Positions 25,191 to 41,405 are shown, numbered from the stretch's first letter. The stretch is 41,497 bases of DNA from a virus (IMGVR_UViG_3300044675_001501:128001-169497); one strand, 5' to 3'. Numbers and translations are program-made. The notes: a model not told the origin generated them from the letters alone.

Positions 25191-25718
25191 TTAGCAGTCC
25201 CAAGCTCTACGAGACCAGTAATTAGCACTAGTCTTGTCGTTTAAATTTCCTTGACCAGAAGATCTAGCGCAATAACTTCTTTTTCTTGCTGGTATATTTT
25301 TCTTTATTGAAAGATTTTTGTCGCCGAAGTTTACCTTCTGCGCCTTACCGTCACCATCTGGATCAACATATACTTTTGACTTCTTAACATCACCCTTCAT
25401 TGGTTTGTTAAGAGGAACAGTCTTTCCCTGATATGTTGCTTCATCAAGATCTAGTTCCTCATGCATCATACCAACATGTTCAGAACCATGAACCTTGTAA
25501 CCCTTCTTTCTAAAGTGGGCTTCACCACGCTTCTTGGCTTCTTCTTCACTATCATTGTGATGAGTAACACGAACAAATTTCTCTTTAGTCTCATCACGCT
25601 TAGAAACCATTGGATGGTCTGGCTCAGAAACTGTTACAGAAATGCGATGAACTTTTGGGGCTGGTGCAACTGGAGCCTGTTCCTCAACAGTTGACACCCA
25701 ATCTGTAAATGAAATCAT
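25191..25718 (-). CDS. Hypothetical virion-associated protein with basic C-terminal module
   Basis: KVNFGD...PARKRSYCAR...SANYWSRRAW module common in aquatic phages; MISFTDWV N-terminus; LDE junction. Confidence 0.7.
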   Translation of the reverse strand: MISFTDWVSTVEEQAPVAPAPKVHRISVTVSEPDHPMVSKRDETKEKFVRVTHHNDSEEEAKKRGEAHFRKKGYKVHGSEHVGMMHEELDLDEATYQGKTVPLNKPMKGDVKKSKVYVDPDGDGKAQKVNFGDKNLSIKKNIPARKRSYCARSSGQGNLNDKTSANYWSRRAWDC

Positions 25719-28153
25719 TTTCTAATCCTATCTCTTTCTAGTCTGCGAACTCTAGGAGCCATACGCATAGCAATTCTATTCAAGACTGGCTTCATTCTTT
25801 GGATTCTTTGCTCTAGTCTTTCTTTCTCAGCAACCGAAAGTTTATTTAGTGGCTTCTTAGCAAGTCTTTGCTTAATGGTTTTAATAGCCATTCTTCTTGC
25901 TCTGTTATTGATAGTCTTAGTGTCAGAAGTTTTTCTTAGGGCAATTTGTAATCTGCGCTCACGTTTTGCTTCTGTTCTTTTGAATCTAGCTTTTGCTTTA
26001 ATTCTCTCGATACGAGATAAGACTTCCATAAGATTGGATTCTTTAACTGGGTCTAGATTATTTTCGTCATCGATCTCGATCTCTTCACCAGTGTCAGCAT
26101 CAACAACTGCTAGTTCTTCATCGTCATAACCATGCTCTAAGATATCCTCATCAGTCATGCTGTTAACAATAGCATCAATTTCCTCATCAGTCATTTCCTC
26201 GAAATCCTCAGATCCTTCTGGAAACTGCGCATCAGCATGCAGTGGTAGAGCTTCTTTATTAATCTCTTCTTCGTCAATAACTCTTTGCGCCCACATCTCT
26301 TCGTTCTCAAGAACTGGAATATCTAAGTCTTCATTTGTTTTAGTTACTACTTTAGCAGTTCCTACCATCTGATCTTTTGGTTCAATTGGTTTATAATTTT
26401 TCTCTTGCTCTTTACGCTTCATCATAGCGTTATATGCAACACTGCCTTTACGTGGCTTCTTAGCGCCATAAGAAAAAGGACCTGCTTCTTGAATCTCAGT
26501 TTCTTCTTTATTCAATTCCTCGCCAACTTTGATTCTATGCGCACGAACCTTTTTACCAGAAGGAGACAACTTATAATCAGAAGTATCCATTTCGCCCTCA
26601 CCTAATTGGTAATTGCGCTTCATCTTTCTTAGATGATCCTTCTTGTGAAACTCTCTGAATTTTAGAATATTTTGCATAGCTTCTTCTTCTTGTAGTTTAG
26701 ACTGTAAAAGTTTTTCATCGTAATCAATACCAACGTCATCGGCTAAGTCGAGCATTCTCTTGACGATAGCAACTGAGTCGGGATTAAGTGTTCTGCTCTT
26801 TAGTTTTCTTAAACCAGCGTCAACTAATAAGTCAGGATCAGACATTGATTCTGGATTCTCAACACCAAGCATAGCTGCGATAACTCTAGCAACTTTAATC
26901 TTATCGGTTGGTTTAATTGTTTTACTTGTTAGTGGCTGATCTTCTTCGCTTAGTATTGCGCCTCTAACACCTTTAGAGAAATCGTATTCGTCTTGCATCT
27001 CGCCCTTACCAAGTTCTTTAAAGTTGCTTAGCATATCTTGCAGTTCATGTAAATGCATATGCCAGTAATCTTGATGATGAACAAATTCGTTCAGTCCTTC
27101 AAGAAGCATTCTTGCTCTTTCGTGAGCAAGAATCCACATTTCTAGTTCTTCTGGATTTGGCTTCTTATCGGTGTCAATATGAACATCGTTAAGACCCATA
27201 TAAGTGTCTGTTGCTTTTATTGCTTCAAGAACTTCTTGCGGATGAGTGTTACCAGATCTTTGAATTGTCATCTCAAACGCTTTTGAGACATAGTCGTGGT
27301 GATGGAAGTTCTTTGTTGTATAACCGCCAAAGGTAATTTCAGTTGGAGTATAACCAACCTGAACATCTTCAACGAACTGAACTTCATGAATCCACTTTGA
27401 ATGTAATGAACCATCTTCAGCTTTCACTAGAAGATGGTTAGAACCTCTTTTAACAATAGAGAATGTTTCTTCGTTACATGTAACCGTGTCGCCTACATTA
27501 AAGATCTCTCCTCTAAAATACTTTTCTCTAAGTTCATCAACAACAATGTTTAGGGATTCTTTAACTGGCTGTAGACCTGACGCTTTTCTAAGTTCGTTCA
27601 TTAAACGACGAGCATCTAGATCAGTAATCGTATGCGGTAGTCCTGTTTTGAATAGCTTGAAGTCGCCTTTCTTAGCAGCTTCGCGCATCTTAGTTCCTGA
27701 CATTCCTGAAGCATCATCAGCATCTGGATCACGTTCGCCAGCGGAGACAACTTCAATGGAATCGAAGTTAAAATCTTTGCCGTTATATGTGGTTAGAAGT
27801 TTCTTGTATTCAGCAATACGATCGCTACCAGCGACCATTACAATATGCTTATACTTTTTGTTTAGAGCAGCAGCAACTTCCATGAAAGTTCTTTGCTGGT
27901 CTGTAGCAGGAGCGAAGTTCATACCTGGAAACATGCGCTTCAGGTAATATATTTTTCTTTCTACTGCTAGGGGATTCTTTTTGGCGTCTTGAGTTTTAGA
28001 CGCATAGATGACATGGTCAGCTGTTGTTCCAGCTATCTTTTTGACTGTCTTTACTAGAAGTTCGTGACCTATCGTTGGTGGCTGGAAGCGACCAAAGGCA
28101 AACACTATCTTTTTAGGAGGTAGCCCCTCCATTAACTGTTTAAACTTTTTCAT
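25715..28153 (-). CDS. HIGH-superfamily nucleotidyltransferase domain fused to acidic/basic modules (812 aa)
   Basis: FGRFQPPTIGHELL, VAGSDR, SAGERDPD, MSGTKMR: cytidylyltransferase-like family of T4-like aquatic phages. Confidence 0.8.
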   Translation of the reverse strand: MKKFKQLMEGLPPKKIVFAFGRFQPPTIGHELLVKTVKKIAGTTADHVIYASKTQDAKKNPLAVERKIYYLKRMFPGMNFAPATDQQRTFMEVAAALNKKYKHIVMVAGSDRIAEYKKLLTTYNGKDFNFDSIEVVSAGERDPDADDASGMSGTKMREAAKKGDFKLFKTGLPHTITDLDARRLMNELRKASGLQPVKESLNIVVDELREKYFRGEIFNVGDTVTCNEETFSIVKRGSNHLLVKAEDGSLHSKWIHEVQFVEDVQVGYTPTEITFGGYTTKNFHHHDYVSKAFEMTIQRSGNTHPQEVLEAIKATDTYMGLNDVHIDTDKKPNPEELEMWILAHERARMLLEGLNEFVHHQDYWHMHLHELQDMLSNFKELGKGEMQDEYDFSKGVRGAILSEEDQPLTSKTIKPTDKIKVARVIAAMLGVENPESMSDPDLLVDAGLRKLKSRTLNPDSVAIVKRMLDLADDVGIDYDEKLLQSKLQEEEAMQNILKFREFHKKDHLRKMKRNYQLGEGEMDTSDYKLSPSGKKVRAHRIKVGEELNKEETEIQEAGPFSYGAKKPRKGSVAYNAMMKRKEQEKNYKPIEPKDQMVGTAKVVTKTNEDLDIPVLENEEMWAQRVIDEEEINKEALPLHADAQFPEGSEDFEEMTDEEIDAIVNSMTDEDILEHGYDDEELAVVDADTGEEIEIDDENNLDPVKESNLMEVLSRIERIKAKARFKRTEAKRERRLQIALRKTSDTKTINNRARRMAIKTIKQRLAKKPLNKLSVAEKERLEQRIQRMKPVLNRIAMRMAPRVRRLERDRIRK

Positions 28154-32542: not shown

Positions 32543-32572
32543 ATTATACTCCCTGAAATGACAAAAAGTCAA
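32543..32572 (-). promoter_or_regulatory. Sigma70-type promoter
   Basis: TTGACT-N18-TATAAT; ATG follows the -10 by 6 nt. Confidence 0.75.
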
Positions 32573-32625
32573 GACACCTGTTATTTAGGGTATCCTGACT
32601 TTTTTGTATTTTTCGTAATGCGAAA

Positions 32626-33975
32626 TTAGCCAAAGAACGAGTCTAAGGTCGCCTCCTCAACTGGCTCAAAGTGGCTTTCCCACAGGTTATTGCCATTGGT
32701 AACTGCCCTTGGATCTCTGGTCAAAGAACCAGTGTCGTTCTCTGGATAATATCCAGCGTTCTTACCCATAGCCAAATCAACATACTGCTGGGCGATTATT
32801 CTTCTGTCGAACAGCTTGAGAACTTCATAGTTTCTCTGGACGATCTCTTGATACTTGTCCTCACTAATAGCCATGTAACAATTGATCATGTCGCCAAACT
32901 GTTTTGGCGTTGCGTCGTGAGGAATCATAAGATAGTTTTCATCAACCTTAAACAAGGTTCCGTTGCCATGCTCATGATCTGAAACTCCAAGATTTCTAGC
33001 AATAGGAACTACGCCAACTCGCATAGCATCTACGATAACACGATTAAAGTGTTCACCGTAAGTTGTAGTCCAAGAAGTGTCGATTAGAAACTTAGATTTC
33101 TTTAGAATACTATCACGCTTTTGCTCAGTGATGAATCCGATATAAGCCATATTTCCAGTAGCCATAGCATTATCCCAGATTTTCTTACCGATCATATCGT
33201 CAGTAGCATTAGGATCTTTTTCTTTGCTGCAGAAATATTCTGGCTTACACTTATCAGGAGAAGTCATATAAGCACGTTCCATACCATCACCAGCAACAAT
33301 AATCTTACCGTTGATATAAGGAACAGCAGCAACAAGTTCATCAACACGCTTCCATCTCTTAAATGTTTGTAGAGATAGAATTACGTTTTCTCTTTTATCC
33401 CATGCTCCTGGTGTCGGCAGAACTGTTAGATCCTGCGGATTAAGAATCATGTTTCTAGGAACAGGCATAAAGTCAGCAGACTTATACGCAGCTGGGTGAA
33501 CGCATGCGATACCAGAAAACTTATGAGAGAATTTATGGATCCAGCTGTATAGTTTCTTTAGATTACCGTCATGAATAATAACTACCTGTTTGGCAGTTAG
33601 TTCCTCAACCATTGGAATCCAGTCAGTAAACTTCTCAGTCTCTGAGTTCTTAAACCCGAAGATAGATTGCCAGATAACAATGTCATGCTTGTTAGCATCT
33701 TCAACAAACTTACGAATACTATTCTGGTTCTTAAGAGAATAGTATGGAGCAATCCAACCTTTACCTTGATGAACAGGAAATCCAGTTCCAGCACCAAACT
33801 CATAACCTTCTGGGCAAACAGTTGTATCTACTGGTCTAGGATCAGTTTGCGTTGGTTTAATATAAGCAAAAGTTACATCATGACCCAAGTCTTTCAGACC
33901 AGCAATCAATTGCTCATTATGATTAATGATACCTCCAAAATTATTGAAGGTATGCATGGGAATAAAAATCTTCAT
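32626..33975 (-). CDS. GT-B fold glycosyltransferase (GT4-like), probably DNA-modifying
   Basis: N-terminal FGGIINH...LKDLGHDV, KRWKRVD, VAGDG, EHFNRVIVDAM..G; C-terminal TLDSFFG clamp-type peptide. Confidence 0.8.
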   Translation of the reverse strand: MKIFIPMHTFNNFGGIINHNEQLIAGLKDLGHDVTFAYIKPTQTDPRPVDTTVCPEGYEFGAGTGFPVHQGKGWIAPYYSLKNQNSIRKFVEDANKHDIVIWQSIFGFKNSETEKFTDWIPMVEELTAKQVVIIHDGNLKKLYSWIHKFSHKFSGIACVHPAAYKSADFMPVPRNMILNPQDLTVLPTPGAWDKRENVILSLQTFKRWKRVDELVAAVPYINGKIIVAGDGMERAYMTSPDKCKPEYFCSKEKDPNATDDMIGKKIWDNAMATGNMAYIGFITEQKRDSILKKSKFLIDTSWTTTYGEHFNRVIVDAMRVGVVPIARNLGVSDHEHGNGTLFKVDENYLMIPHDATPKQFGDMINCYMAISEDKYQEIVQRNYEVLKLFDRRIIAQQYVDLAMGKNAGYYPENDTGSLTRDPRAVTNGNNLWESHFEPVEEATLDSFFG

Positions 33976-34382
33976 TCTGCTTTTACCCTTTGTCTCAGTT
34001 CTGTTGTAGAGAAAGTATGTTCACGCTTATTAAAGTATAACTCGATTCCTCTTTTAAGGCAAATTTCTTTCCCAGTAAAATCTTTGTTTTTGTATTCTTC
34101 ACCAAGAATTCTAATATTGATGTCAAGAATCTTCAGCAAATCTTCTAAGTCTTTCTCGGTTTGATAAACAATAATTTCATCAACCCATCTTACTGCCTTT
34201 AATTGTATGTAGCGTTCAACAATACTCTGAACAGGTTTGTTCTTGGTGTCTGGTCTGTCAATTGTTGGATCTGTTTGTAATCCAACAATCAACTTATCAC
34301 AATGCTTCGCTGCCTCAGCCAGCATAAGAATATGACCAGCATGAAGCAAATCAAATGTTGAGCAAGTAAATCCCTTCTTCAT
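33972..34382 (-). CDS. TagD-like (glycerol-3-phosphate) cytidylyltransferase
   Basis: TFDLLHAGH, LIVGLQTD, ERYIQL, RILGEEY, FSTTELR. Confidence 0.88.
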   Translation of the reverse strand: MKKGFTCSTFDLLHAGHILMLAEAAKHCDKLIVGLQTDPTIDRPDTKNKPVQSIVERYIQLKAVRWVDEIIVYQTEKDLEDLLKILDINIRILGEEYKNKDFTGKEICLKRGIELYFNKREHTFSTTELRQRVKAE

Positions 34383-35698
34383 GCGAAGAATTCCTCTAGT
34401 GAAGTTTTCTGCGACTCAGGATGATACTTAACGAGAGTATCCTGACCTAGTTTACTTCCAAGATAATCGTACCATTCCTGGCTAGACCACATTCCTGGAG
34501 AAACACCATTCCACAGTTTGCGCCATTCAGGATGCTCTTTGTTTGTTCTCCTACCCTCAACAAACTCATAACGAGCATCTTCATACTCTTTGCTACCAAG
34601 TTCAAGCATATTCTCACGAAGATATACAACAAGAGACACACGCTCTGAGCCTTCTTCACAAACGATAGGTGTATTACCATGAATAATCTCATGATTATTA
34701 ACAAGAAGCAAATCGCCTGGACGAACATTAACTGCTACTCTAATCTCTGGGAAGATAAGATAACCACCACTGTATCTACCATCATTAGATAAGGTCAACA
34801 GATTAGACATACCCTTGGTAAAGTCACCAGCATCTCTGTGCGCTGCTGTTCTGAAAGTTTTATTAACAGTAACAGTAGTAAATGGAGTTTTAGGAATAAC
34901 AAATCTAGAATCAATACTGTCAGTTGCTGCTTTCTGAGCAGCATATCTTTCAGGTAGCAGTTCTTTGAAACCTTTAGCAAGATGTTGTAAGAATGGATAT
35001 GCCATCTTAAACTTGTCAAAGTTATCACGAGTGTAAGTTGTTGCTCGACCATAGGGGATACGAGGATAACGATCGAACCAGCCAGCAATACCAGAGTCAA
35101 CTGGATTGCCATAAGAAGTTTCAGAAACCATCTTCATAGTTTCTTCAGTAGCCTTTGCTCGCTCTTCACGATTCAATGGCTTGATAGAATCAACCCACTC
35201 ATCAAAGTTAAACTTGCCACGGAAGCGAGAGATAACCCAAACATTATTCTTACCTGAACCCAATGCCTTCAGACGAGATTCTTCAGTAGGATATTTCGCA
35301 CGCAGAACATCAATAATATCTTCGTTTACGATAGCAGCATCTCTAGCATCAAGCAATCCCTGTAGAAGTTCTTCTTGATAATTAGTTACCCACTCACGAC
35401 CTTCGCCATTGACTGAAGTTCCTGCTTTAATACCTGAAGCAAGACCACGATTTTCAGTTCTGACTGCGGCATCTCGAAGTCCAGCATATGCTGCGTCTTG
35501 TTCTTCTTTGCCGAAGAAGTTCTTTCTAAACTTGAAAGCAATTCTAGATTCATCAACAACTGAATCAGCACCGAATGATGCTGGAAGATAACAATCCATA
35601 TCTTCTTCAACTAGAATGTCATAATGTTGCTCATCAAGAAACAAGCCAAGCAAATGCTCGCTCTCATAATATTTTGGTGCTACGTATACCTTTACCAT
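34379..35698 (-). CDS. TET/JBP-family 2OG-Fe(II) 5-methylpyrimidine dioxygenase
   Basis: PFTTVTVNKTFRTAAHRDAGD (HxD), HGNTPI, ERVSLVVYLRE (2OG-binding Arg): TET/JBP signature. Confidence 0.8.
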   Translation of the reverse strand: MVKVYVAPKYYESEHLLGLFLDEQHYDILVEEDMDCYLPASFGADSVVDESRIAFKFRKNFFGKEEQDAAYAGLRDAAVRTENRGLASGIKAGTSVNGEGREWVTNYQEELLQGLLDARDAAIVNEDIIDVLRAKYPTEESRLKALGSGKNNVWVISRFRGKFNFDEWVDSIKPLNREERAKATEETMKMVSETSYGNPVDSGIAGWFDRYPRIPYGRATTYTRDNFDKFKMAYPFLQHLAKGFKELLPERYAAQKAATDSIDSRFVIPKTPFTTVTVNKTFRTAAHRDAGDFTKGMSNLLTLSNDGRYSGGYLIFPEIRVAVNVRPGDLLLVNNHEIIHGNTPIVCEEGSERVSLVVYLRENMLELGSKEYEDARYEFVEGRRTNKEHPEWRKLWNGVSPGMWSSQEWYDYLGSKLGQDTLVKYHPESQKTSLEEFFA

Positions 35699-35709
35699 TT
35701 TATTCTCCG

Positions 35710-37098
35710 TTAAAATTGAAACCCTGACGCATCTATAGAGCTTCGTTTACCAAACTTACTTTTGTCGAATAATGGCGTATCATCTTGCTCACCAGAGTCA
35801 GCGATATCTTCCTGCGCTGACATCTCGACATTATATAACTTCATCTTAGACCTGTCAATACCAACAATGAATCTCTTATAATAATTTGGGTCACTATAAC
35901 GATTCTTCAACTGCTTGACCATAATCTGATTAAGTTGTTCCATTTCCTCAGTACTAATCAACGCAAACATAAAGTCAACTGTCGCTGGTAGACCAAACGA
36001 TTCAGAAGTATCTTCAAGTCCAGGATCACTGCTTGTGAAACCAGAACGAGTTGTTTGAGTTGCGCTGAGAATCGGAACATTATATTCAACCGCCAATCCT
36101 CGAATCTCTTCTGCGATGCTCTTGATATATGTATATGAATTAACATTTGACCCCTGACGAAGTCTTTGAGAAGCACAGATATTAAGATAGTCAATGACTA
36201 CCAAATCTGGAACAAACTCTCTCTTCATCTTGAGTTCTTCAAGCAAAGCACGGAAGTGACCAGAGTGCGCAGTTGCTGTTGGATATTCCTTGATGATAAG
36301 TTTACCTTTGGTCTTACTCGCAAGTTTAGCGACACGATTATCAAAGATATCTTTATCAATTGCTTTCAATTCATCCATGCTTAGGTTCAGCAAGTTACAA
36401 TCAATCCTCTCAGCGATGCGTTCTTCAGCCATCTCCATAGTTATGTATAGAACATTCAAATTCTGAAGTAACGCTTGAGCAGAAACGTGACACATAAACA
36501 AAGATTTACCAACACCTGTACCTGCCAATGCGACATTCAAGGTTTTCTTTGAAAGACCGCCCTTAGTGATTTTATTAAGGAGATCAATATCGAATGGTAT
36601 TTTCTCTTCAATCCTATGATAAAAATCATAGCGTTCATCTGAATTCTCAATATAGTCGTGACCGATATGATTATCAAATGAAACGGCAAGAGCATCAGAA
36701 AGAATAGATGGTATAGCATCTTTTGTGTGTGCAACATCACGACCCTCAATAATTTTGATTGAATCCATAATCGCCAGATACACCGCACGATCTTTACAGA
36801 ATTTTTCAGTGTGTTCAATTAACCAATCTTTATTGATTTCTTTCTGCTCTATCTCATGGATTGTTACCTGAAGATCAGCGTGCTCTTTATCCGTGATATC
36901 AGTTCTGTTAGAAACTTCGATACCAAGGATTTCTTTAGTAAGAGGTTTATTGAACTTGGAGAAGAACTGAACAATCGTTGAAATGATTATTCTTTCTTTC
37001 TTCTCCGCAAAGTATTGATCTTTTAAAAACGGTATAACTTTTCTGCAGTACTCTTCATCAAAAATCAAATTACTAATAATAGACTGCTCAATTCTCAT
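35710..37098 (-). CDS. gp41: Replicative DNA helicase (T4 gp41-like)
   Basis: LAGTGVGKS, ITMEMAEE, IIKEYPT, IDYLNIC, SATQTTR, TSESFGLPATVD, QLKNRY. Confidence 0.95.
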   Translation of the reverse strand: MRIEQSIISNLIFDEEYCRKVIPFLKDQYFAEKKERIIISTIVQFFSKFNKPLTKEILGIEVSNRTDITDKEHADLQVTIHEIEQKEINKDWLIEHTEKFCKDRAVYLAIMDSIKIIEGRDVAHTKDAIPSILSDALAVSFDNHIGHDYIENSDERYDFYHRIEEKIPFDIDLLNKITKGGLSKKTLNVALAGTGVGKSLFMCHVSAQALLQNLNVLYITMEMAEERIAERIDCNLLNLSMDELKAIDKDIFDNRVAKLASKTKGKLIIKEYPTATAHSGHFRALLEELKMKREFVPDLVVIDYLNICASQRLRQGSNVNSYTYIKSIAEEIRGLAVEYNVPILSATQTTRSGFTSSDPGLEDTSESFGLPATVDFMFALISTEEMEQLNQIMVKQLKNRYSDPNYYKRFIVGIDRSKMKLYNVEMSAQEDIADSGEQDDTPLFDKSKFGKRSSIDASGFQF

Positions 37099-37391
37099 TC
37101 AGTTCCACCTGTAAAGATAAGTTCTTTATGTTCGATTGCTTTCCGTATAACTTCAACGAGGATGTTTCCGATAGTGGTTTCGTATTCTTTCTTGGAATCT
37201 TCACCACCGCTATCGCCTTCTAAATGATTGTATTCAAAAGAAAGGATAGGTTCATTCTCATTAGGGAATTCTACCTTACCGAAGTTAAAAAGGCAACCAT
37301 TGAATTTGCCAGACAAGATTTTTATTTTGTAAAAACCATCTTCAGTCGCTTCTGGCAAAACTTCGTAGTCTTCAAACTCCTTCTGGCTCAT
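37095..37391 (-). CDS. Small acidic protein at the T4 gp40 syntenic position
   Basis: Lies between uvsX and gp41; the assignment rests on synteny only. Confidence 0.5.
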
Positions 37392-38430
37392 CTTCAAGTT
37401 CCTCATCTGTTACAACAACATCACTACCAAACTTGTATTTGACAGCACAATATTCATCAATGCGCTTCATAATATCTTCAGTGAAATATGTTGTTGGGTT
37501 TTCATTAATGTTCTTACCGAATAGTTTTTTACCATCTTCTAATTCAATACGACCACCTTGAGATTTCCAGATACCAGCTTCAACAGCAAGATCAAGCAAT
37601 CCATGATAACGATCTAGACCTGTACTAAAAGAAAGTTTAGTTTCAACCATAGATTGTTCTTTAGTGAACCTAGACTTCTCAAGTTTGCACTTGATAATGT
37701 TACCAATCACCTCAGTGCCATCCTTATCTTTAGATTTAGACAGGAACACGATAGTGGATGCTGCATACTTCAGACCATCACCACCGCCCATTGTCTTTGT
37801 TGGAACATATGCACCGACGACAGCGTAAGTATGGTTAGTAACAATCATTGCGATATCAAGTTTCGCCAACTTCAATGATAGAACACGGAACGCACCACGA
37901 ACAAGTTGAGCACGAGTCATATCACGAGTCTCTTTACCCTCAGCGATATCTTCCATCTCTTTAGTAGTTGAAAGCATACCCAATGAGTCAAGACACATCA
38001 GTAATGGTGGGCGACTATCTTTCTTTTCTTTCTCATACGCATCAAGAATCTTAGTAGCTTGAGTTCTAAATTCTTGAACTGTTGACACAGGAACAATAAC
38101 AAAACGGCGAGTGTCAATACCTCGCTCAGTTAACATATCCTTTGTTAACGCACCTTCAGTTTCAAAGTAAACAACACCTGCTTTTGGGTTACTGTTTAAG
38201 AAATGCTTACAGATACCAAGAGCATAGAAAGTTTTACCTGTTGATGATTCACCAGCAAGTGCTGTTACTTTGTTAGATGGCAAACCACCATGTATTGACC
38301 CTGAAAGCAGTGCATTAAAGGCATAACTACCAGTATCGATAAACCCAGCAGTGTCACCAACAACACCATCATCAGCAAGACCCGCATATTCATTATCTAA
38401 TTCCTTGACGATTGTCTTTAAAAAATCCAT
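37372..38430 (-). CDS. uvsX: RecA-like recombinase UvsX
   Basis: AGESSTGKT Walker [31 protein letters not shown]; GGAGG RBS. Confidence 0.95.
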
Positions 38431-38450
38431 AATATCCTCCAAATAATTTA

Positions 38451-38912: not shown

Positions 38913-41405
38913 CTATTCGAAAAATGATTCAAGGGTGACTTGTTCTTCGACATGCCAACCCAAAGGTTCTATTACGTTTGACAGAGGATCAAGGAAAACC
39001 TTTTCAAACTGTTTATCGTAATCAATATACTTATGTAAATTTAGATCACGAGGTAAAGTTCCCAAGAAAGAAATAACATCTTCATTGATTGGGTTTGGTG
39101 TTTTCAAATAAACAAACTTAATCTTCTCTCCGTCTTTAATAAGCTGGTGTATGTGTGTAAGTTTCTTCTGTTTAATATAATGATTATAAAGCAACGCTCC
39201 CCTCACATGAATCGGTGTTGACTTAGCATAGACAGAGCTGGTTCCTGCATATGTTTTAATTCCATTCACACCACGTGGGAAAGCAATCTCTTCAACAGAC
39301 ATATTATTAAACTCTTCTCGGAAATCCATAACATACTTATGTAGTATAGATTCATCACCAGCAAGAATAACTTTAATAGAGTCTTTTAATTTATCACGAA
39401 TAACAGCTGGGGTTGAAGATTTAACCATCTCAAGTCCCATGACTTTAATCTTCGGCTCAGCATATTGAACACCCTCAGAGTTATGCACATTCAATATGTA
39501 GCGTTTCTTTGCAGTCCAGATACCTTTATCCGCAAGAACTTCACGCTTCATCTGCATCTTCTGCGAATAAGCATTCATCATAGATGCTAGTTCATTATAA
39601 CATCCATCAATAAATGGTTGAACCTTGTCTTCACAGAAACGATCCATAAAACTAATCGTCTTATCGACAGGATGATCTGGGTAATATGTGTCAACAAGTT
39701 TCTCAAATGTGACATAGATAGAATCGGTGTCAACTGCAATAATATAATCAGCATCTTTAGTCTTTAGAACTTTGTTCATAAACGCATTCATCTTGTCATG
39801 AATCCAGCGAATAGACAGCTGTCCCGAAGTCGTAATACCTTCAGCCATGCGAATATCAAAGTAGCGAAAATATTGGTTACCCATCGCACCATAAGCGGAG
39901 TTCAACGCAATCTTCATAGCCATCTGCAGATTATTCAGACGAGAGATTTCTTTCAGCAAAGATTTCTCTTTGGTCTTCTCATACTCTTGCTGAACTTTCA
40001 ACATCTGTTTCTTAAACTTGCTTCGGTTAGCATACATTTCTTCCATCAATGCTGGCATAAAACCTTGCTTGCTCTTATCATAGCAAACACCATTAGCAGT
40101 CATTGTTAGATCGCGATCGATAAGCATCTGAGTATCAACAGTACCAGCAAGAAGTCGCTCAACATTAGTTTGAACTCTGCCAGGTTTGAGAGTCTCAGGC
40201 GAAATGTTATACTGCATAATCAAGTGCGGATATAGCGAGTTCAAGTCAAAAGACACGACCCACTTATGTAGACCAAGCAAAGGATCTTTAACATACGCAC
40301 CTTCAAACGCAGAGTCTTTCTTATTACCACTGTTAGGTGGGATAACAATGTTCTTATCACGCAAATGATTATAGATGATTGCGTCCCACATACGAACCTG
40401 ACTGAAGACATCTACGTAATTGATCTTAGCGTTATACGCCATAGTCAATTGAAGTTCAATCAAGCGCATCTTATCTTCTAGTTTGTCAACTAGACGAACG
40501 TCATGAATGTTATATTCTACGAACTCATTCCAGTAATTTGTGTAGAAATCTTTGAAGGAATCGCCAGGATTTTCTTTCTTCTTCTCGCCGAGTTCAATGT
40601 ATGCGATATGATCAAGTTTATATGATTCTTGAGCAGAGTAAGTATATTTGCGATAGAGGTCAAGATAGTCAAGAGAACTGATGCCAGCGATGTCGTAGCT
40701 AATTTCTTCAACACCCTTAACAACAATTCTGCGTTCATTGATAAGTCCCCAAGGAGAAATCTTTTTAGCCTGCGCTTCTCCTAGAACATTAATAATTCTG
40801 CGGATGAGATAAGGAACGTCAAAGAACTCGATGTTCCAACCAGTGATAACATCAGGTGGACTTAGACGCCAGAAAGAAAGGAACTCCCTCAGTAGATGTT
40901 CCTCGCTCTTACACTGAATATATTTAATCTTATGATCAAGACCAAGTACAGGTCCAACACCGAAGGTTGTTATTTCTTTTGTGTTATTATCTTGAACAGT
41001 AATTAGAAGAAGTTCTTCATTGGCTGTTTCCATGTTAGGAAAGCCATCTTCAGTTTTAGTTTCAATGTCAATAGAATAGATCTTGATTAGTTCACGATCC
41101 CATCTAACTTCACCCTGATGCGTGTCGCTGATATATTGTGCGACATAGTTTGTGTTTCCGTAGATTGGGAAACCTTCAATGTCTTTATATTGATCAATAA
41201 AATCTCTGGTGTCTCTGATAGATCCAGGTTTGACTGGATAAACAAGAGTTCCCTCAAGAGTTTTATGTGGTGACTGCTTTTCCTTAGAGGAAGTTACAAA
41301 CACTGTTGGTTGAAAGTCAACCTTGAAAGAAACAGGGTTGTTACCATCGTACCCACGAACGAGTAGATTATTTCCCTGCATGTAAACATTAGTATAGAAA
41401 TCCAA
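38913..41405 (-). CDS. gp43: Family B DNA polymerase (T4 gp43-like)
   Basis: DIET exonuclease motif, DLNSLYP, KIALNSAYG, DTDS, KKRY; TTG start; C-terminal TLESFFE. Confidence 0.97.
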   Translation of the reverse strand: MDFYTNVYMQGNNLLVRGYDGNNPVSFKVDFQPTVFVTSSKEKQSPHKTLEGTLVYPVKPGSIRDTRDFIDQYKDIEGFPIYGNTNYVAQYISDTHQGEVRWDRELIKIYSIDIETKTEDGFPNMETANEELLLITVQDNNTKEITTFGVGPVLGLDHKIKYIQCKSEEHLLREFLSFWRLSPPDVITGWNIEFFDVPYLIRRIINVLGEAQAKKISPWGLINERRIVVKGVEEISYDIAGISSLDYLDLYRKYTYSAQESYKLDHIAYIELGEKKKENPGDSFKDFYTNYWNEFVEYNIHDVRLVDKLEDKMRLIELQLTMAYNAKINYVDVFSQVRMWDAIIYNHLRDKNIVIPPNSGNKKDSAFEGAYVKDPLLGLHKWVVSFDLNSLYPHLIMQYNISPETLKPGRVQTNVERLLAGTVDTQMLIDRDLTMTANGVCYDKSKQGFMPALMEEMYANRSKFKKQMLKVQQEYEKTKEKSLLKEISRLNNLQMAMKIALNSAYGAMGNQYFRYFDIRMAEGITTSGQLSIRWIHDKMNAFMNKVLKTKDADYIIAVDTDSIYVTFEKLVDTYYPDHPVDKTISFMDRFCEDKVQPFIDGCYNELASMMNAYSQKMQMKREVLADKGIWTAKKRYILNVHNSEGVQYAEPKIKVMGLEMVKSSTPAVIRDKLKDSIKVILAGDESILHKYVMDFREEFNNMSVEEIAFPRGVNGIKTYAGTSSVYAKSTPIHVRGALLYNHYIKQKKLTHIHQLIKDGEKIKFVYLKTPNPINEDVISFLGTLPRDLNLHKYIDYDKQFEKVFLDPLSNVIEPLGWHVEEQVTLESFFE

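Follow-up and report, generated by a model that had tools for sequence, protein, structure and literature searches.

A TET/JBP dioxygenase and a GT4-like glycosyltransferase with polymerase-type tails in the replication region of an uncultured T4-like lake phage: a candidate thymine glycosylation cassette

In this study, we analyzed three coupled genes in a 41,497-nucleotide stretch of viral DNA (IMGVR_UViG_3300044675_001501:128001-169497), hereafter the window; positions are counted in the window unless a related locus is named, and all of its features described here lie on the minus strand. The window covers the final 41.5 kb of an IMG/VR virus record that is 169.5 kb long and has a CheckV completeness of 100%. 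The record represents an uncultured lake T4-like phage; no cultured phage has a DNA polymerase more than 55% identical to its gp43-type enzyme, T4-like cyanophages coming nearest, and a Gram-negative or cyanobacterial host is presumed. In order of transcription, the genes encode a TET/JBP-family Fe(II)/2-oxoglutarate dioxygenase of 439 amino acids (aa) (TET; 34379-35698), a small HxGH nucleotidyltransferase of 136 aa (NT; 33972-34382) and a GT4-like GT-B glycosyltransferase of 449 aa (GT; 32626-33975). An earlier note, made from the sequence alone, had described three such genes directly after helicase gp41 and downstream of the uvsX promoter. The open reading frames (ORFs) were recovered at exactly these coordinates, both junctions (TET/NT and NT/GT) are ATGA stop/start overlaps, and the promoter ahead of uvsX (38479-38451) agrees with the sigma-70 consensus at 12 of 12 positions. 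A second 12/12 sigma-70 promoter, which the note had not mentioned (TTGACA-17-TATAAT; 35830-35858), lies still inside gp41, in its 3' end, and precedes the start of TET by about 130 nt. The GT stop is followed by an intrinsic terminator (32563-32604), a 16-bp hairpin with a 10-nt loop and then a U-run, whose folding energy (dG -22.8 kcal/mol, z -7.4) was equalled by none of 200 shuffled sequences. Thus, with its own promoter, its terminator and the ATGA coupling, the trio appears to be a discrete early transcription unit.

The trio stretch was found nearly unchanged in lake-water metagenomes from at least 10 studies (2020-2025). Contigs of other lake-water runs bridged GT, NT and TET with 0-18 differences (one 2.9-kb lake contig covers 32300-35046 with 18), and the arrangement is therefore not an assembly artefact. 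A joint deleting the NT gene was not seen in the contig tiling of four lake runs, although contigs cannot exclude such a variant. When the trio was compared by megablast with 50,697 phage records, none matched.

First, the dioxygenase matched the Tet_JBP family (PF12851) over residues 234-362 with 86.2 bits against a cut-off of 34.9, and phrog_24024 aligned over the entire protein (E 3e-144). The Fe(II) triad (H287, D289 and H340) and the 2-oxoglutarate arginine (R353) were invariant in 25 orthologs of 55-81% identity. In its AlphaFold2 model (predicted local distance difference test, pLDDT, 80.8), the protein has a TET-type double-stranded beta-helix fold; Foldseek ranks 1-26 were all CcTet, NgTET1, TET2 or CMD1 (E 2e-10 to 8e-8), and the first non-TET match was FTO (E 7e-5). 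Family, catalytic residues and fold thus bear out the TET/JBP assignment made earlier. Full-length orthologs were also present in the cultured T4-like phages DLP6 (47% identity), C48C1 (43%) and Cr30 (41%), where GenBank mis-annotates them as 'SNF2 DNA repair protein'. In Stenotrophomonas phage DLP6 (L001, 3057-7347), TET is paired with TAGT and a 563-aa NTP_transferase-domain protein, and in C48C1 (L003, 7353-9385) with an unannotated 344-aa protein and UDP-galactopyranose mutase. In Caulobacter phage Cr30 (L002, 6001-12474), it lies in one block with genes for a dATP/dGTP diphosphohydrolase, AADT (E 1e-52), a weak TAGT and inositol-1-phosphate synthase; a TagD-like gene of the same phage is located about 90 kb from this block, next to rnh and the polymerase. 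A literature search on DNA modification in Cr30 or DLP6 found no paper.

Second, the glycosyltransferase matched PF00534 (Glycos_transf_1) with 31.2 bits against a cut-off of 26.4, and its AlphaFold2 model (pLDDT 89.2; predicted template modelling score 0.88) shows the two-Rossmann GT-B fold, in agreement with the GT-B transferase noted before. The best Foldseek matches were HepE, an archaeal glycogen synthase, GlgM, BshA, PimA and MshA (E 7e-13 to 1e-10), and the modeled fold is closest to that of GT4-type retaining nucleoside diphosphate (NDP)-sugar transferases; structural matches among viral models included glycosyltransferases of phage SP-15 and DNA alpha-glucosyltransferases. Two acidic residues, E308 and D316, were invariant in 48 homologs and stand eight apart (E-x7-D, EX7E-like), an assignment made from the list of invariant residues alone; a basic stretch, FKRWKR, was also invariant. 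We collected 338 metagenomic homologs, of which the best 120 were full-length, at least 56% identical and located on contigs of up to 173 kb, while a tblastn search of the 50,697 phage records gave no match and hence no relative in cultured phages.

Both enzymes end like the polymerase of the same phage. The C-terminal heptapeptides, SLEEFFA in TET (34382-34402) and TLDSFFG in GT (32629-32649), are candidate sliding-clamp-binding tails, and TLESFFE of the gp43-type polymerase (gene 38913-41405; tail 38916-38936) is the reference clamp-binding tail of the phage, its role being known for gp43 (PMC2988020). Among 888 genome ORFs of at least 40 aa, the pattern [ST]L[DE]xFF ends only polymerase, TET and GT, and it occurred nowhere else in genome ORFs of at least 100 aa. 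The tail was kept in 108 of the 120 GT homologs and in 22 of the 25 TET orthologs. Such tails were also carried by the TAGT and AADT transferases that take the place of GT in relatives, and were absent from NT and from other metabolic proteins encoded between TET and GT. Four other phages were read for the cognate polymerase tail, which matched in DLP6, C48C1 and the phage of locus L005 and did not in Cr30. The acidic, hydrophobic C-termini of gp43, gp55 and gp33 are known ligands of the gp45 clamp in T4 and RB69 (PMC2988020); the candidate tails are of the same type, short acidic and hydrophobic peptides at the extreme C-terminus, but stand on base-modifying enzymes (TET, GT, TAGT and AADT). 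Because both DNA-acting enzymes carry the tail of the polymerase, clamp-tethered modification of new DNA is suggested, and TET and GT are, judging from these sequences, probably recruited by gp45 to freshly replicated DNA. Full-text literature searches turned up no description of clamp tails on enzymes of TET/JBP pathways.

Three observations limit the case for such recruitment. In L005 (4655-6004) and L006, whose GTs are the closest to this one (83-86% identity), the TET tail has diverged (...NLMEMDL), and LDEFFG and LEEFFG are retained by GT and polymerase. When three copies of this phage's gp45 (G000:C1, 4500-5159) were modeled in complex with GT residues 410-449, the score was 0.57 (best control 0.00; contacts agreeing by at least 54% between runs, partner pLDDT at least 40), which counts as weak support: 58 of 80 solved complexes attained this mark, as did 2 of the 110 mismatched pairs, passes at or below 0.60 (7 of the 80 solved complexes and both mismatches) are unreliable by the tool's own calibration, and the pass may reflect likeness only, as a solved RB69 clamp-peptide complex exists. 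Finally, the reported interaction of T4 alpha-glucosyltransferase with gp45 was not reproduced in a 2025 preprint that used C-terminally tagged glycosyltransferases (10.64898/2025.12.06.692756); unlike the enzymes described here, the T4 glycosyltransferases have no such obvious tail.

The explanation that we favor, with moderate confidence, is thymine glycosylation by clamp-tethered TET and GT, with NT as an accessory: the early operon would modify phage DNA after replication. In the first step, TET would hydroxylate the methyl group of thymine in DNA to give 5-hydroxymethyluracil (5hmU). In the second, GT, a predicted DNA (5hmU) glycosyltransferase, would move a sugar from an NDP-sugar to that hydroxyl, giving a base-J-like O-glycosyl-5hmU. 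In the third and least certain step, NT would make or boost the nucleotide-activated donor, probably an ADP- or NDP-sugar derived from a host sugar-1-phosphate, in the way that HldC makes ADP-heptose; NT would be helpful, not essential. TET and GT, not NT, would be docked on gp45 through the polymerase-type tail. Against this explanation it counts that the base, the sugar and the linkage of the product are all deduced from what was observed directly, namely gene order, domains, catalytic residues, folds, tails and distribution in relatives, and that, as set out below, NT is missing from some relatives and ambiguous in its substrate class.

We then considered whether the trio is a unit. Approximately 30 of about 87 TET loci had a GT gene within 1.1 kb downstream of TET. 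This pair is the conserved core of the cassette and was located at two genome positions, behind gp41 in some loci and behind gp46/gp47/pdf in others. Two complete genomes, G011 and G012, carry TET and GT but no small PF01467 protein, the 99%-complete genome G007 has NT without TET (the genome of the phage itself served to validate these searches), and 78 of the 80 best viral-contig homologs of NT had neither TET nor GT within 6 kb. NT is thus neither necessary nor specific. TET and GT are directly adjacent in L005, L006 and L099, with GTs 82-86% identical to this one; in L097-L099, the absence of NT was judged within the flanks only. NT was also absent from G001-G005, which carries little weight as these partial relatives are 11-57% complete. 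Members of the NT family are very numerous and for the most part solitary, as in the interval from uvsW to gp47/gp46, and in cyanophage S-B43 an NT homolog adjoins the genes for a dTDP-glucose dehydratase and an epimerase. On these grounds, TET and GT might be the whole pathway, fed by a host NDP-sugar such as UDP-glucose, and NT an unrelated mobile auxiliary gene, of a kind common in T4-like phages, that landed between them. We regard this as unlikely, although it is the most serious alternative. NT is translationally coupled on both sides here, and inside TET cassettes it always lies directly upstream of GT, overlapping it, in at least five independent variants: the NT-GT junction is ATGA here and in L010/L011, and the other variants are TET-NT-GT in L189, TET-282aa-48aa-NT-GT in L190 and TET-277aa-NT-GT in L191, so that the order persists even when a 277-282-aa protein also occupies the slot. 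There is also a published precedent, contig 53, in which a CTP-transferase-like enzyme is essential (10.1101/2023.12.21.572611). The earlier note had named a lack of correlation of this gene with the other two in related phages as refuting its proposal, and the picture in relatives is mixed: NT recurs coupled to GT in several variants, but some relatives have the pair without it and one has NT without TET. We read NT as an optional, repeatedly recruited donor-supply gene, with the host providing the donor where it is missing.

The slot between TET and GT was empty, held NT, or held proteins of 197 aa, 277-282 aa or 128 plus 114 aa without assigned identity. Members of the 277-282-aa family (L190, 2526-3374; L191, 2671-3504; L098, 4002-4850; L104, 8407-9240) occupied the slot between TET and NT or GT in many relatives and had neither a Pfam match nor a clamp tail, and an Atlas search with the 282-aa protein returned viral hypothetical clusters only, with recognition below the useful level. 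The family may be one of donor-tailoring enzymes.

The identity of NT bears on the donor, which the earlier note had proposed to be CDP-activated (glycerol- or polyol-phosphate, or an unusual sugar); on its TagD reading, a TagD-type enzyme would make CDP-glycerol or another CDP-polyol, and GT, as a TagF-like phosphotransferase, would add glycerol- or polyol-phosphate to the base. NT scored 56 bits on PF01467 (CTP_transf_like; cut-off 21), and at the level of curated models it is an equivalog of no family: the best model was TIGR02199 (heptose-1-phosphate adenylyltransferase; 82.8 bits, cut-off 181.5), ahead of TIGR01518 (TagD; 57.8 bits, cut-off 165.4), neither cut-off being reached. PGAP-named rfaE2/hldE references likewise matched better (E 1e-11 to 3e-12) than tagD references (E 3e-7 to 1e-5), and both indels in the alignment are shared with RfaE2/HldE domain II and not with TagD. 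In the tree, NT belonged to a separate phage-only clade (support 86/81); the path was 4.3 changes per column to the rfaE2 clade and 5.6 to tagD, in an unrooted tree of three clades with long branches and unsettled bootstrap that cannot assign it to one or the other. Other comparisons lean towards TagD. In a phmmer search of the PDB, TagD chains (1coz, 49.2 bits; S. aureus 2b7l, 48.5 bits) ranked above Burkholderia HldC (5x9q, 32.4 bits), with human ECT at 62.6 bits; the NT motif RWVDEI resembles the cytidylyltransferase motif RYVDEV, and REHTFSTT resembles the TagD signature RTEGISTT, the R and STT being kept. JGI and GenBank name NT homologs glycerol-3-phosphate cytidylyltransferase or TagD, and glycerol-3-phosphate is available in any host. 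From sequence, the substrate class of NT is thus ambiguous.

The partner, on the other hand, speaks against the CDP-polyol route. GT did not match PF04464 (TagF/TagB), has a GT4-type fold in its model, and had no TagF or TagB among its top 50 Foldseek matches; three of four PGAP-annotated reference tagD genes had PF04464-type CDP-glycerol glycerophosphotransferase neighbours, and NT here has no such partner. Relatives with GTs 82-86% identical to this one lack NT, although CDP-glycerol is not known as a common metabolite in Gram-negative hosts. The similarity to the TagD/TagF system thus extends to an HxGH protein of similar size and a partly similar C-terminal STT motif, whereas scores below the cut-off, other indels, the missing TagF-type partner and a presumably Gram-negative or cyanobacterial host set the two apart. 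We therefore consider a CDP-polyol donor improbable, and this part of the earlier proposal is not upheld. Our best guess, by analogy, is an HldC-like enzyme acting on a sugar-1-phosphate; this is favored in view of the partner, a sugar transferase, and of the one published analogue, contig 53, which installs heptose. We note that the ADP-heptose transferases described so far are, to our knowledge, GT9 or BAHT enzymes and not GT4, which counts against it.

The likely substrate base was assessed from the whole genome and from the company that TET keeps in relatives. The earlier note had found no C5-cytosine methyltransferase in the window, and this absence extends to the complete genome: PF00145 gave no match (the positive control was found in 12 of 14 control genomes), and no combination of C5-methyltransferase or S-adenosylmethionine-dependent methyltransferase motifs occurred in any frame among ORFs of at least 150 aa. 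The complete genome has no member of the ThyA family (PF00303), for which reason a pre-replicative hydroxymethyl-pyrimidine route was rejected, and no ParB (PF02195). In 89 related loci, adjacency of gp41 and TET is the rule, and the genes after TET are modular. The closest TETs (L100-L103) are 80% identical to this one, in phages whose gp41 proteins are 90-97% identical; downstream of them lies an unannotated 302-aa protein and then, in L102, AADT (PF18724, E 5e-21). In a 70% identical group (L128-L135), the genes after TET encode GATase, a 294-aa protein lacking annotation, GNAT and AADT. AADT was seen where the contig was long enough (L102, L128 and L133), and E-values for PF18724 downstream of the 70-80% identical TETs ranged from 5e-21 to 2e-24. 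In other relatives, TAGT is the gene after TET. A further cassette, in L139 (2449-4715), consists of GATase, Amidoligase_2, a second 2OG-Fe(II) oxygenase (PF13640) and then an AADT-like protein.

Contigs that combine TET_JBP and AADT have been interpreted by Lee et al. as converting thymine to 5hmU, and the chemistry of AADT is thymidine hypermodification from 5hmU (PMC8989533). Phage thymine dioxygenases were demonstrated by O'Toole et al. (PNAS 2026), and a C5-methyltransferase was present in only 6% of 5mYOX pathways (PMC13229309). Because the genome has no C5-methyltransferase, ThyA or ParB, because orthologs of this TET head AADT cassettes, and in view of these precedents, thymine is the likely substrate and 5hmU the likely product, on the basis of orthology and the absence of other routes; the suggestion of thymine in the earlier note is strengthened to that extent. 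Alternatively, TET might oxidize 5-methylcytosine (5mC), made by a host or unrecognised methyltransferase, and GT might glycosylate 5-hydroxymethylcytosine (5hmC), as in the clade A/B phage TET pathways. It is true that 5mC has been the starting base in every experimentally reconstituted phage TET-GT glycosylation pathway so far and that some phage thymine dioxygenases also oxidize it. However, the genome lacks PF00145, the methyltransferase motifs and any ThyA-family dCMP methylase or hydroxymethylase, and the close TET orthologs are tied to thymidine-specific AADT cassettes, so we give the cytosine route little credence.

It is less credible still that GT and NT modify something other than DNA, either a glycan of the host envelope or a protein, with TET as a mere neighbour: the JGI name of the GT family ('glycosyltransferase involved in cell wall biosynthesis') and the usual action of GT4 enzymes on lipids, glycans and small molecules point that way, but the polymerase-like tail is retained in about 90% of the 120 GT homologs, the TET-GT pairing is strict at both genome positions, its slot can be taken by TAGT or AADT, both known DNA transferases, and phage DNA alpha-glucosyltransferases are among its structural matches. 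Because the polymerase-type tail is kept and the slot is shared with tailed TAGT and AADT, GT most probably acts on DNA.

A pathway of this type has already been published, in the form of TET-GT clusters, of thymine dioxygenases, and of contig 53, where a CTP-transferase-like enzyme and a GT-B accompany TET. The DNA hypermodification module of the TET/JBP-plus-transferase type that the earlier note had recognized thus stands, whereas the description as a new pathway was overstated. What is new is the form: a cassette in a T4-like replication operon that combines a GT4-like DNA glycosyltransferase, a donor enzyme that is HldC-like and optional, and clamp tails of the polymerase type. The metavirome contig 53, compared here by description only, has TET in a C5-methyltransferase context with a HAD/APH bifunctional enzyme, a CTP-transferase-like enzyme and a GT-B, and yields mono- and di-heptosyl-5hmC (10.1101/2023.12.21.572611). 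As in that system, a PF01467-type NT stands beside a GT-B DNA glycosyltransferase downstream of TET/JBP, consistent with a phage-made donor. Unlike it, the present cassette has no C5-methyltransferase (with thymine as the likely base) and no kinase/phosphatase partner, relatives can dispense with NT, the enzymes carry clamp tails and belong to a T4-like genome, and GT is GT4-like, whereas the contig 53 enzyme is called T4-beta-GT-like in the paper.

The characterized thymine dioxygenases 5mYOX97 (ParB-independent) and 5mYOX176 (ParB-dependent) (PMC13229309) share with this system the TET/JBP fold, the lack of a C5-methyltransferase and an association with glycosyltransferases or with GATase, kinase and AADT genes; this likeness is one of fold and gene context. 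Helicases are listed as frequent neighbours in the same survey (PMC13229309). The present genome has no ParB gene anywhere, and DNA tethering may instead be served by the polymerase-like clamp tail, a feature on which that paper is silent. Contigs with TET_JBP, 5-HMUDK and AADT (PMC8989533) resemble the cassettes headed by the 70-80% identical orthologs of this TET, whereas here the amino-acid branch is exchanged for NT and a GT4-like GT.

In kinetoplastids, base J is made by JBP1/2 and then the glucosyltransferase JGT, which is GT-A-like. The predicted course from thymine through 5hmU to O-glycosyl-5hmU on finished DNA is the same here. On the other hand, the glycosyltransferase families are unrelated (GT is GT-B, GT4-like), and the setting is a phage, where modification would probably be genome-wide and coupled to the replisome. 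A literature search found no glycosylated 5hmU from a phage TET/JBP pathway.

More broadly, and only tentatively, the same arrangement could represent a replisome-coupled form of hypermodification throughout this large clade of freshwater T4-like phages, in which TET and the transferase that follows it (GT, TAGT or AADT) work on gp45, the clamp takes over the tethering or activating part that ParB has for other phage thymine dioxygenases, and the base of this phage is a new O-glycosyl-5hmU, possibly heptosyl, with HldC-like donor supply. Phage TET/JBP hypermodification is a young field, with thymine dioxygenases shown only in 2026 (PMC13229309), and a compact three-gene cassette with clear promoter and terminator limits offers a route to a phage 'base J analogue'. 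The shared tail poses the testable question of whether the sliding clamp recruits or activates DNA-modifying enzymes. If true, clamp docking would explain how post-replicative enzymes cover a whole genome and why ParB-less clade C1 enzymes and some metavirome TETs are inactive alone in E. coli, and it would parallel the DNMT1-PCNA pair of eukaryotes. In addition, the variable TET-GT slot resembles a library of genes for donor tailoring assembled by nature.

Upstream of the trio, the genes are, in order, the gp41-type replicative helicase (DnaB_C by Pfam; 35710-37098), which is the upstream neighbour of TET in most relatives, then a 103-aa ORF, uvsX (RecA by Pfam; 37372-38442) and the gp43 polymerase. 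Downstream, the next promoter (32543-32572; 11/12 consensus) is interlocked with the GT terminator: its -35 box lies inside the 3' arm and U-tract of the terminator, and its -10 box lies 6 nt upstream of the start codon (ATG) of the gene that follows. Farther on, an 812-aa protein (25715-28153) carries a second, weaker PF01467 HxGH domain (23.5 bits); it is unrelated to the NT of the trio and has long homologous ORFs in G011 (973 aa) and G007 (684 aa).

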